Source: a virus (taxonomy: Duplodnaviria; Heunggongvirae; Uroviricota; Caudoviricetes). From it: DNA of 27,901 nucleotides. The notes below the pieces were generated by a model. The model saw nothing but the letters and a program-made list of their open reading frames with translations, was not told the DNA's origin and made no database searches. The stretch lies in the IMG/VR virus record IMGVR_UViG_3300001765_000297. The stretch is one strand, 5' to 3'. Made by a program: the position numbers and the translations under genes. Shown in pieces: positions 4,010 through 5,836 of this stretch (position 1 is its first letter; the number at the start of each line of letters is the position of its first letter).

Positions 4010-4082
4010 CCCACCGTGGCTGAGTGGTTAAGGCGTTGGACTCTAAATCCAATTTGTGCGGGTTCGATTCCTGTCGGTGGGT
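4010..4082 (+). tRNA. Amber suppressor tRNA (anticodon CUA)
   Basis: Acceptor CCCACCG/CGGTGGG; D arm GCTGAGTGGTTAAGGC; anticodon stem TTGGA/TCCAA with loop CT-CTA-AA (CTA at 4043-4045); 5-nt variable loop; T arm GCGGG-TTCGATT-CCTGT; U73; CCA not encoded. Confidence 0.92.
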
Positions 4083-4097
4083 CAAAATATAATTGAA

Positions 4098-4637
4098 ATG
4101 AATAAAGTTGCAATATACAGTAGAATTTCAAATAAATCACAAGATTTATACAATCAAAAGATGAAACTGGCAGCATATGCTCATGAAAGAAATTGGATTT
4201 TTGATATGTATGAAGAAACTGAATCAACTCGGAATACTCGTCCAACGAAACAAGAATTATTAAACCAAATTCGATTGGGTGTCAAGTATGATGCAATTCT
4301 TATTTATTCGTTCGATAGATGGGCGAGAAATTATAACGAATTAATTCAAGACATTCATGAATTAATGAACCGTGGAATTAAATTTATTAGCGTGGGTGAT
4401 GGACTCGATATTTCAACTGAAAGTGGAAAAGAATCGCTAAAATTATTAACAGCATTCTATAAATTTGAATTAGATAAAATAACTGAACGAACAAAACTTG
4501 GGTTAGAAAGAGCAAAAATGGAAGGTAAAATACTTGGAAGACCTATGGGTTCTAAAGATAAAACTAAAAGAAAAACCATTGGTTACATTGAAAGAGAAGA
4601 AATTAAAAGAAATAATTTGCTAGTTAAAAAACTTTGA
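4098..4637 (+). CDS. Small serine recombinase (resolvase/invertase family)
   Basis: AIYSRIS..SQ catalytic motif, DRWARN, ERTKLGLERAK.EGK.LGRP. Start moved to ATG 4098 because the longer track start lies inside the tRNA. Confidence 0.9.
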   Translation: MNKVAIYSRISNKSQDLYNQKMKLAAYAHERNWIFDMYEETESTRNTRPTKQELLNQIRLGVKYDAILIYSFDRWARNYNELIQDIHELMNRGIKFISVGDGLDISTESGKESLKLLTAFYKFELDKITERTKLGLERAKMEGKILGRPMGSKDKTKRKTIGYIEREEIKRNNLLVKKL

Positions 4638-4657
4638 TTAAATTTGCAACTCAATAG

Positions 4658-4665
4658 TATTTATA
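4658..4665 (+). promoter_or_regulatory. TATTTATA upstream motif (putative phage late-type promoter)
   Basis: Recurring motif, here 19 nt before ATG 4685. Confidence 0.5.
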
Positions 4666-4684
4666 AACAATTAAAACTAAGAAA

Positions 4685-5035
4685 ATGAAAAAAGTTGACG
4701 AAGGTATTGGCTAGGTTAAATTAGTTACAGTAACAAGAAAGGACATCAGTCCTGGTTATCAATTAGCGCAGACCCTACACAGTAGTAGTAGATTTGCATA
4801 TCATCATCCCGAACTCCACAGGGAATGGATTGAACAATCCGAATATGTCGTTTCATTATCAATCGATAATGAAGAAAAACTCAAGAGATTATATTATAAA
4901 TTGCTAGACAATGGTGCTAGTGTCGTAGCTTTTCACGAACCCGACATTGACAACCAATTGACTAGTATTTGCTATTACGGTACTCCGGAGTTAAGAAAAA
5001 TTACAAATAAATTAGAACTCGCACTTAATAATTAA
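4685..5035 (+). CDS. PTH2-fold (peptidyl-tRNA hydrolase 2-like) protein requiring readthrough of in-frame TAG at 4712-4714
   Basis: Manual translation MKKVDEGIG*VKLVTVTRKDISPGYQLAQTLHSSSRFAYHHPELHREWIEQSEYVVSLSIDNEEKLKRLYYKLLDNGASVVAFHEPDIDNQLTSICYYGTPELRKITNKLELALNN*. KL.xVxRxD..G..xAQxxH...W...VV.L pattern of PTH2-like proteins; no in-frame start codon near the TAG. Confidence 0.75.
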
Positions 5036-5039
5036 AGCT

Positions 5040-5300
5040 ATGGAAAACAAATGGTTAATGTTTAAAAATTACATGCATAATGAACTTGGTATCACGAAAG
5101 AAGATATTCGCCAATGGATTGAAGAATCGGTAGAAGAACAGGCAAAAAAACTCGTTGATAATGAGTTTAAAAAATTTGATATACATAAAGTAGTTCAACG
5201 TATCATCACCGATGACCAATATTTTGGTTCGAAAAATCTAAAACGAGATATTTCTCAGGAAATGACAAAACAAATATTGGAACGCATTAAATTCGAATAA
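5040..5300 (+). CDS. Hypothetical protein
   Basis: 86-aa ORF starting 4 nt after the PTH2-like stop. Confidence 0.75.
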   Translation: MENKWLMFKNYMHNELGITKEDIRQWIEESVEEQAKKLVDNEFKKFDIHKVVQRIITDDQYFGSKNLKRDISQEMTKQILERIKFE

Positions 5301-5331
5301 TTAAAGTCGCAACTAAGAATTAAAGTCGCAA
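5299..5331 (+). repeat. 14-nt direct repeat AATTAAAGTCGCAA x2
   Basis: Copies at 5299-5312 and 5318-5331. Confidence 0.7.
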
Positions 5332-5346
5332 TTAAATTTTATGATT

Positions 5347-5382
5347 ATGAAAGAAACATAGATACACACCAGACCACCATAA
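5347..5382 (+). other. Putative leader peptide MKET(TAG)IHTRPP(TAA)
   Basis: ATG AAA GAA ACA TAG ATA CAC ACC AGA CCA CCA TAA TGA; extra in-frame ATG at 5341; lies in the 5' region of the gene at 5466. Confidence 0.55.
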
Positions 5383-5465
5383 TGATATGGGTATTAACGA
5401 ATTATGAATCAGATTCGCAAATCACGAATTAAATAAAATAACAATTAAAATTTAAATCTATTATT

Positions 5466-5801
5466 ATGGAAAATCAGTTAAAATATAATATCGCTAAAAT
5501 GAAAGCAGATATTAAAGTAAGGGCAGAAGAACAGGTAATGTTAAAAAATCAAAGAAAATCTGTTCACATTATCGGTGAAAGAAAAGTATCTGCAAGTGAT
5601 GCAGCTTACAAACATTATGTAAATAAAAGCGATTTACGTATTATGTACGCAGCTTATGGCTTGGCTAGAGGTAAGAGTTTTTCTCAGACCGAAAATAAGT
5701 TCGAGGAACATAATCATCCTCTTCTTGTAGTATTCAAACGCAGCATCGATAGAATACTTGAAAGCTATGTAATGCCTGTCGAAGTTCCGGTTCAGGAATA
5801 A
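5466..5801 (+). CDS. Hypothetical phage protein downstream of the amber leader peptide
   Basis: 111 aa, TATTATG start context; YAAYGLARGKSFSQTE segment; no function assignable. Confidence 0.85.
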   Translation: MENQLKYNIAKMKADIKVRAEEQVMLKNQRKSVHIIGERKVSASDAAYKHYVNKSDLRIMYAAYGLARGKSFSQTENKFEEHNHPLLVVFKRSIDRILESYVMPVEVPVQE

Positions 5802-5808
5802 TTTTTAA

Positions 5809-5836
5809 AGAAAAGGGGGATTCGTTCCCCTTTTCT
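5809..5836 (+). terminator. Intrinsic terminator-like hairpin
   Basis: AGAAAAGGGGGA-TTCG-TTCCCCTTTTCT just after stop 5801; closes the putative tRNA/PTH2/leader unit. Confidence 0.7.

Follow-up and report, generated by a model that had tools for sequence, protein, structure and literature searches.

A putative translational switch in a tailed phage, run by a suppressor tRNA through two stop-gated outputs on one transcript

The question raised by the locus described here is what purpose a suppressor transfer RNA (tRNA) may serve in a phage whose genes otherwise obey the standard genetic code. The locus lies in the IMG/VR virus record IMGVR_UViG_3300001765_000297 (Duplodnaviria; Heunggongvirae; Uroviricota; Caudoviricetes), a stretch of 27,901 nucleotides (nt) that was analysed at its full length and is referred to as the window. 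Within 1.8 kb of one strand, and closed by a terminator, are found a tRNA with the anticodon CUA; an open reading frame (ORF) with the predicted fold of peptidyl-tRNA hydrolase 2 (PTH2), interrupted by an early in-frame TAG; a leader mini-ORF with an internal TAG of its own, which ends in Arg-Pro-Pro (RPP) and TAA; and a gene for a protein of 111 amino acids (aa). All of these had been named in a sequence-only reading of the window and all are present, although that inventory overlooked two further genes, coding for a serine recombinase and for an 86-aa protein (Table 1). The same reading proposed a dedicated circuit operated by the suppressor tRNA, and this proposal has gained considerably from comparison, since both stops are fixed across dozens of diverged loci and become TAA exactly where the anticodon is UUA. 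On this basis, the locus is probably a translational switch run by the suppressor tRNA, with two gated outputs on one transcript. The tRNA itself, both gates, the match between gates and anticodon, the RPP-UAA ending and a covarying helix can be regarded as established at the level of sequence comparison.

Related loci were gathered by tblastn and pattern scans, yielding a set of 47 IMG/VR loci, one Logan contig, one NCBI metagenome-assembled contig, one further metagenome contig and four deposited huge-phage genomes, with 40 unique PTH2-like loci that are 34-100% identical to the window protein. An early in-frame stop after ATG plus 1-15 codons, hereafter the gate, is found in 37 of these 40 loci (38 after correction of one misparse). 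It directly precedes a conserved [VI]KLVT[VI]TR strand, and a canonical start codon afterwards is usually absent; in the window, the nearest ATG, GTG or TTG of the frame after the TAG is located 62 codons downstream. Gate and anticodon go together: TAG is accompanied by a CUA suppressor in 29 unique loci and TAA by a UUA suppressor in three, the number of mismatched pairs is zero, and in the remaining five TAG-gated loci no suppressor lies in the fetched flank, two of these being without upstream DNA. The tRNA(CUA) is encoded on the same strand in 29 of the 34 TAG-gated loci, mostly 5-1400 nt upstream of the gate, and ungated PTH2-like genes in the related loci examined have no suppressor tRNA nearby. 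Thus, the in-frame TAG is conserved and co-occurs with tRNA(CUA), as the sequence-only reading had anticipated, and the opposite outcome, sense codons at this place in most homologues as a sign of decay, was not seen. On a maximum-likelihood protein tree built from 116 columns, the TAA state takes at least two changes, which is a soft count. The suppressor tRNAs comprise 33 unique sequences, and because they belong to several unrelated sequence types there is no single conserved tRNA; judged from these sequences, the conserved thing is the pairing of some suppressor with the gate, and not one given tRNA. The Gln that appears at the gate in public protein sets is an artefact of gene callers using TAG=Q. 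None of these locus features looks like the product of chance or damage.

The tRNA(CUA) of the window carries the label tRNA-Pyl in the ARAGORN output, which reflects the CUA anticodon only; the general tRNA model of Rfam fits it over its full length with 61.3 bits against a gathering score of 29, and a scan of the proteins of part of the window ORFs revealed no Pyl gene. One ungated relative (L055: 4870-5010) is peculiar in that its sole nearby ATG stands one base out of frame with the PTH2-like ORF (ATGA), which lies ~50 nt after an odd 78-nt tRNA-Gly(UCC) in a locus that has no suppressor tRNA. A quadruplet-decoding gate was considered for this case and dropped, as the anticodon loop of the tRNA-Gly has the normal 7 nt. 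With regard to carriers, deposited phages were searched with the DNA of region 3300-5900 and, by tblastn, with the 111-aa protein, and because both searches came back empty, no cultured carrier of the leader module was found. The whole module is contained in a 362,763-bp contig (L013; NCBI GCA_041651655.1) deposited as a Candidatus Paceibacterota genome bin, which is probably a huge phage binned as a bacterium.

The second gated element, the leader, was followed with a strict pattern in which ATG and three codons precede a stop, and a further three codons, Arg, Pro or Ser, Pro, and TAA come after it. A complete relative was available for this and other comparisons, namely a 327-kb contig (the record of L016; loci L064-L080) that is rated complete by CheckV and was examined whole. 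It contains the strict pattern once, directly 3' of the PTH2-like gene, where shuffles expect 0.05 occurrences. Among 2.9 million viral contigs, the pattern is present in 22, of which 21 were already known carriers of the PTH2-like gene. When separated by the internal stop, the TAG form accounts for 20 of these contigs (19 already known carriers) and the TAA form for two, which are exactly the two tRNA(UUA) contigs, while the TGA form occurs in none of the 2.9 million. A scan of metagenome contigs for the TAA form returned 11 matches, ten of them due to chance and one a true module with a tRNA(UUA) and a TAA gate. If small variants (IIRPP, VARAP, IRPP) are counted, 27 unique loci have the leader, with an internal stop that is identical to the PTH2-like gate stop in every one of them, including the three TAA loci.

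Two further properties concern the way in which the leader may be translated. Its Arg and Pro residues are conserved through synonymous codons (AGA/CGA/AGG and CCA/C/G/T, respectively), and because these codons vary synonymously, the comparison points to selection acting on the leader peptide. Peptide release after Pro-Pro is slow, and a Pro-Pro ending is found in none of the 443 ordinary ORFs of the 327-kb relative and in none of the 52 of the window. The leader ATG lies -4 to +26 nt from the PTH2-like stop in 16 of the 27 loci, often as an ATGA overlap; since its start overlaps or nearly abuts that stop, the arrangement suggests that leader translation is probably coupled to completion of the PTH2-like protein. 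In the window, another in-frame ATG is present at 5341, ahead of the leader ATG at 5347. The interval between the leader and the 111-aa gene (5388-5458 in the window, and its equivalent in most loci) has a peculiarity of its own: it contains three copies of a word of 7-9 nt, two in direct and one in inverted orientation, the word differing by locus (ATTCGCA, TATGGGACA, AAGGACA, ATATCGCA). Such repeats could form local hairpins that draw the strands of a longer helix together, or could be operator sites.

The sequence-only reading had already taken the RPP-stop leader for a regulator, to which a candidate mechanism can be added, namely a covarying helix predicted to mask the start codon of the 111-aa gene. 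In the centroid fold of the window RNA, 11 bp join 5377-5387 to 5459-5469, and the duplex has an energy of -11.9 kcal/mol; the mean duplex energy over the loci is -10.9 kcal/mol, compared with -8.8 for permuted and -3.1 for shuffled partners. The register of the helix is conserved in 24 unique loci, with positions 1-10 paired in 83-100% of them; sliding the register reduces pairing, and none of 1000 permutations of partners among loci reaches the observed pairing. The identity of the pairs changes across the same 24 loci, for instance at position 8 (AU in 10, GU in six, GC in four and UA in four) and at position 9 (AU in 12, GC in five, UA in three and GU in two). An RNAalifold run over 22 loci, with sequences that start at the leader ATG and end at codon 3 of the downstream gene, returns this helix only, with seven double changes in each of two pairs. 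The masked segment begins at the codon that the ribosomal P site would contain while UAA occupies the A site, and extends 5-10 nt past the UAA. Two elements typical of leader attenuation are found here: a short upstream ORF on the same strand, and a start-masking helix, which overlaps the predicted site of the paused ribosome.

In the mechanism that we infer from these features, which comprises readthrough, a pause at RPP-UAA, activation of the downstream gene by that pause and the roles of both proteins, ribosomes would stop at codon 10 of the PTH2-like ORF and at codon 5 of the leader as long as the phage tRNA(CUA) is absent, and without suppression neither the PTH2-like enzyme nor the 111-aa protein would be made. 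Once charged suppressor outcompetes release factor 1 to a sufficient extent, the PTH2-like protein would be completed, and readthrough of the leader UAG would carry the ribosome six codons further to Arg-Pro-Pro-UAA, a slow-release context. A ribosome paused with the last Pro codon in the P site and UAA in the A site would cover 5377-5387, and occupation of this segment would free the start region at 5459-5469, so that the 111-aa protein is made. Known ribosome footprints suggest that a ribosome halted on the internal stop, which is 18 nt upstream, would fall short of the masked segment. Coupling of the leader to completion of the PTH2-like protein would steepen the response, and the enzyme might, as a guess, recycle the short peptidyl-tRNAs that arise from early stops and from the stalled leader. 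A bolder version, which is put forward only tentatively, would have the suppressor tRNA as a dedicated regulatory RNA and not a coding device, its only clients being the hydrolase gate and the stop-gated arrest leader, which together would form a steep two-step sensor of decoding against termination in the infected cell. Should ribosomes paused at RPP-UAA also sequester release factors, positive feedback on readthrough and thus a bistable switch would result.

Outside the two gates, TAG is a plain stop in the window, as the sequence-only reading had maintained: it terminates ordinary ORFs at 3599, 19322, 23015 and 25779, and reading it through alters the PTH2-like gene and one abutting gene pair only. 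Its further claim, that there is no genome-wide recoding, agrees with the complete relative, in whose ORFs of at least 150 codons TAG occurs 60 times in frame as opposed to 1348 and 1406 times in the other frames, i.e. ~23 times more rarely. The PTH2-like gene is the only convincing TAG-interrupted gene of that contig, and the 327-kb relative, which has the same module, is not TAG-recoded. In addition, the large terminase genes of three complete relatives contain no in-frame stop, the largest ORFs in the 10-kb flanks of 47 loci are barely altered by TAG readthrough, and genes that end in TAG do not have unusually short readthrough tails (TAG against TGA, p 0.94). The coverage by ORFs of at least 100 aa under different codes is too blunt a measure to separate the codes. 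Of the features by which phages with genetic code 15 are recognised, the phage-encoded tRNA(CUA) is present here, whereas numerous in-frame TAGs and fragmented genes are absent. In the 327-kb relative, 358 of the 443 ORFs end in TAA; 55 tRNA genes and a transfer-messenger RNA are located at 72-108 kb, with the suppressor tRNA at the edge of the array, and ARAGORN also calls two tRNA-like genes with two-base anticodons.

As for the proteins, the AlphaFold model of the PTH2-like protein has a predicted local distance difference test (pLDDT) score of 87 and reproduces the four-stranded sheet with helices of the Pth2 fold in ~115 residues; its first strand runs from residue 12, just past the TAG, and residues 1-7 are disordered. 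The best Foldseek matches in the PDB are all Pth2 proteins, of archaeal and human origin (2zv3, 3erj, 1wn2, 1q7s and 1xty; TM 0.71-0.77), and all of the top 15 come from Pth2 or Pth2-like proteins (TM 0.59-0.77, lowest E 8e-7). Pth2 chains are also reached with a family profile (E 2e-6), the alignment with Pth2 includes the motifs K-[LM]-V-x-V-x-R-x-D-L and AQ-x-x-H, and an Asp is found in the EPD segment. The Pfam model PTH2 (PF01981) scores 20.1 bits (E 7.7e-4), below its cut-off of 23, and some homologues have a precomputed PF01981 match. The 111-aa protein is identical to one recorded on a 91.9-kb contig and has 174 homologues, none of which is named or has a Pfam domain. Its model (pLDDT 91.6) is a helical hairpin closed by two short edge strands; comparison with Pfam and PHROGs gave nothing usable, and Foldseek (PDB and AlphaFold clusters), a wide VIA-align search and ESM Atlas gave generic helical-hairpin matches only (best E 0.065, Z 6.0, cosine 0.90). 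Of the description of the locus as a translation-rescue module in the sequence-only reading, the predicted PTH2 fold stands, but the label is unsupported as stated, the 111-aa protein having no recognisable family.

Other explanations can be given for the same locus, and they differ in what they leave unexplained. That the PTH2-like gene is a pseudogene or the victim of a sequencing error, and the mini-ORF a chance frame, has already been refuted and retains practically no probability: a single window cannot by itself separate a premature from a programmed stop, but the rest of the frame is intact and more than 40 loci conserve it, both in-frame TAGs recur unchanged in contigs that come from another study's independent metagenome run (X2), and the leader pattern is far above chance. 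It is also quite improbable, though not to that degree, that suppression plays no part and that the ribosome terminates and restarts at the adjacent near-cognate codon (ATT, ATA, GTT or GTA), the tRNA being a coincidence of a tRNA-rich region. The stop is indeed followed, with few exceptions, by GTN or ATH, which differ from GTG or ATG by a single step, and PTH2-like genes sit among tRNA genes even when ungated, as in mycobacteriophages such as Myrna (gp84). Yet Val or Ile at this place is also demanded by the first strand of the predicted fold, the next codons of the leader are not start-like in several loci (AGT, AAC, TTT), the same internal stop of the leader is not accounted for, and neither is the restriction of TAA, in both ORFs, to loci where the anticodon is UUA.

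Ordinary partial recoding, in which TAG becomes an amino acid late in infection as in code 15 and both TAGs are merely recoded codons close to the tRNA, is unlikely, and ranks above re-initiation. Phage suppressor tRNAs and regulation of late genes by TAG-to-Gln recoding have been described (Borges et al., bioRxiv 10.1101/2021.08.26.457843), public gene callers already translate the PTH2-like gene in this way, and the 27.9 kb examined contain early and nucleotide-metabolism genes. What speaks against it is the complete relative, which has the same module and is not recoded, together with the largest ORFs of the flanks, which barely change. Moreover, random recoded codons would not hold one fixed position in two ORFs down to 34% identity, nor would they switch to TAA along with the anticodon, and phages are not known to reassign TAA, no case having been found in a 2026 survey of jumbo phages (PMC13037316). 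Marginally less unlikely is a homeostat with the same wiring and another purpose, in which the suppressor serves other ends, such as extended proteins or a disturbance of host termination, and the gated enzyme acts on its acylated or peptidyl form, fixing the level of readthrough by negative feedback. An early in-frame stop in a gene of the translation-factor type is the established hallmark of prfB autoregulation, the PTH2 fold acts on acyl-tRNA esters, and an ochre suppressor would need limiting where most genes end in TAA, as in the relative. However, the variety of unrelated suppressor types speaks against a specific enzyme-tRNA pair, genes that end in TAG show no adaptation to readthrough, and the gated leader and its 111-aa output are left unexplained.

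The two-output switch is thus preferred as the probable reading, but it is nevertheless important to stress the points that weigh against it. Shared ancestry and gene order mean that the locus counts overstate the number of independent events; of the phage itself only 27.9 kb have been seen, and late genes beyond the window could still use TAG; and there is no RNA run among the sequencing runs found to contain the sequence. Seven pairs of the masking helix are invariant and uninformative, its support coming from positions 8-13, and the region 5335-5490 folded alone is no stabler than shuffles (z -0.38); the evidence for the helix rests on covariation, not on stability. In the loci with a UUA anticodon, the UAA at the end of the leader is open to suppression as well, and the simple model becomes less clear-cut. 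Finally, this family has Tyr or Gln at the place aligned with the Lys in the GKGK loop of Pth2; because of this replacement, and of a Pfam score under the cut-off, the protein is designated PTH2-like only, and may not be a standard peptidyl-tRNA hydrolase.

The features of the locus are collected in Table 1. The promoter-like motif GTATTTATA occurs in six exact copies in the window, all on the + strand (2447, 4657, 8249, 15543, 15946 and 23310), and five of the six sit 22-50 nt 5' of an ORF start, four of them belonging to + strand ORFs other than the PTH2-like one; the AGTATTTATAA motif, which is the same motif, precedes the PTH2-like gene in related loci too. It is probably a promoter element of this phage group. 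Because a copy is located at 4657 and none of this type is found from 4665 to the terminator, the segment 4665-5838 looks like one transcription unit.

Table 1. Positions of the features of the suppressor tRNA locus in the window
Feature	Position	Strand	Evidence or remark
Suppressor tRNA, anticodon CUA (reads UAG), 74 nt	4010-4083	+	ARAGORN; Rfam tRNA model
Serine recombinase, resolvase/invertase type, 179 aa	4098-4637	+	Pfam Resolvase 1.6e-29; phrog_125 DNA invertase
Promoter-like motif GTATTTATA	4657-4665	+	28 nt 5' of the PTH2-like ATG; inferred start of the transcription unit
PTH2-like ORF: ATG, 8 codons, in-frame TAG at 4712-4714 (codon 10), 106-codon PTH2-fold domain	4685-5035	+	Translation; phrog_1866 2.7e-12
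86-aa gene between PTH2-like gene and leader	5040-5300	+	Lineage-specific insertion
Leader mini-ORF MKET-TAG (5359-5361)-IHT-RPP (5371-5379)-TAA (5380-5382)	5347-5382	+	Architecture shared by 27 unique loci
Anti-start segment: last Pro codon, UAA and 5 nt further	5377-5387	+	Pairs with 5459-5469
Start region of the 111-aa gene, -7 to +4, including AUG and G	5459-5469	+	Predicted partner of 5377-5387
111-aa gene, proposed regulated output of the leader	5466-5801	+	3' of the leader in related loci, distant ones too
Intrinsic-terminator-like hairpin with T run	5815-5838	+	Closes the unit

Several genes appear to have been inserted around these elements. The serine recombinase, a resolvase/invertase catalytic domain with a short tail, starts 14 nt past the suppressor tRNA and has homologues in none of 49 related loci; it looks like a recent insertion beside the tRNA gene, outside the conserved module. 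Homologues of the 86-aa gene are found in two of the 49 loci, and a 151-nt contig of a related phage (run X3) fuses 5029 to 5301 with one base between, the gene being missing, which marks it, on sequence grounds, as an insertion/deletion polymorphism. In a number of other loci (L012, L015/L016, L021-L023 and L030), the leader is separated from the 111-aa gene by a homing-endonuclease gene of the HNH/NUMOD4 type (~250 aa), which has a promoter-like motif to itself, and the masking helix is lost or degraded in loci with such an insertion. Just 5' of the tRNA, two small + strand genes (3309-3599 and 3600-3869) meet in frame at AAT-TAG-ATG; 12 of the 13 loci of a subclade retain the TAG of this junction, and suppression would yield a fusion protein. 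The junction was not counted as a gate, as a TAA is found together with a tRNA(CUA) in one locus, and the second gene, which begins with an ATG of its own, occurs elsewhere without the first. A second tRNA of the window, tRNA-Ser(GGA), is encoded at 17651-17723 on the minus strand, within the sole minus-strand block.

When compared with systems already described, the module shares something with each of several without coinciding with any. Suppressor tRNAs of phages, recoding as a regulator of late genes and the existence of standard-code phages with suppressors were noted by Borges et al. (bioRxiv 10.1101/2021.08.26.457843), with no mention of PTH2 or of a leader, and Iyer et al. 2021 (PMC7824862) reported PTH2 in jumbo phages and proposed that it recycles peptidyl-tRNA after tRNA damage, with no mention of an in-frame stop, a suppressor or a leader. 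Full-text searches of the literature found no paper describing a tRNA/PTH2 gate or an RPP leader with a helix. In code-15 phages (crAss-like, Lak and others, with TAG as Gln), a phage tRNA(CUA) likewise overrides a host stop, and in-frame stops have been proposed to hold genes until the tRNA is active. In contrast, the genome here appears to keep the standard code, and two, perhaps three, fixed positions near the tRNA are affected; the gate stands at the start of the ORF, a version with TAA and UUA exists, and one of the targets is a regulatory leader.

The leader itself resembles the attenuators of ermC, cat/cmlA, secM-secA and mifM-yidC2, where a ribosome paused in a short upstream ORF holds one strand of a masking helix and thereby turns on the next gene. 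Here, however, the input would be readthrough of an internal stop by a dedicated tRNA, and not a drug or a secretion defect, and the inferred pause takes place at a termination codon after Arg-Pro-Pro, with a nascent chain of 11 residues. The gate of the PTH2-like gene is reminiscent of prfB, in that a translation-related gene contains an early in-frame stop and its expression follows the balance between termination and an alternative decoding event; prfB, in contrast, uses a +1 frameshift at UGA and senses its own product, whereas the module relies on a separate tRNA gene and continues in the same frame past TAG. The bar minigenes of phage lambda are very short ORFs that shed peptidyl-tRNA, are harmful to pth-deficient hosts and are genetically tied to peptidyl-tRNA hydrolase. 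The MK-stop and MKxx-stop frames in and beside the PTH2-like gene are comparable to them, although bar minigenes regulate no phage hydrolase.

Suppressor tRNAs of standard-code phages have had no known target, and the module offers two, at fixed positions. It would join the use of stop-codon suppression as a regulator with leader-peptide attenuation by pausing, which are not known to occur together in nature, and it points to the uncharacterised 111-aa family as the regulated output. If the switch operates as proposed, it would constitute a compact natural part for tRNA-controlled expression and would show how phages monitor the translation state of their host.

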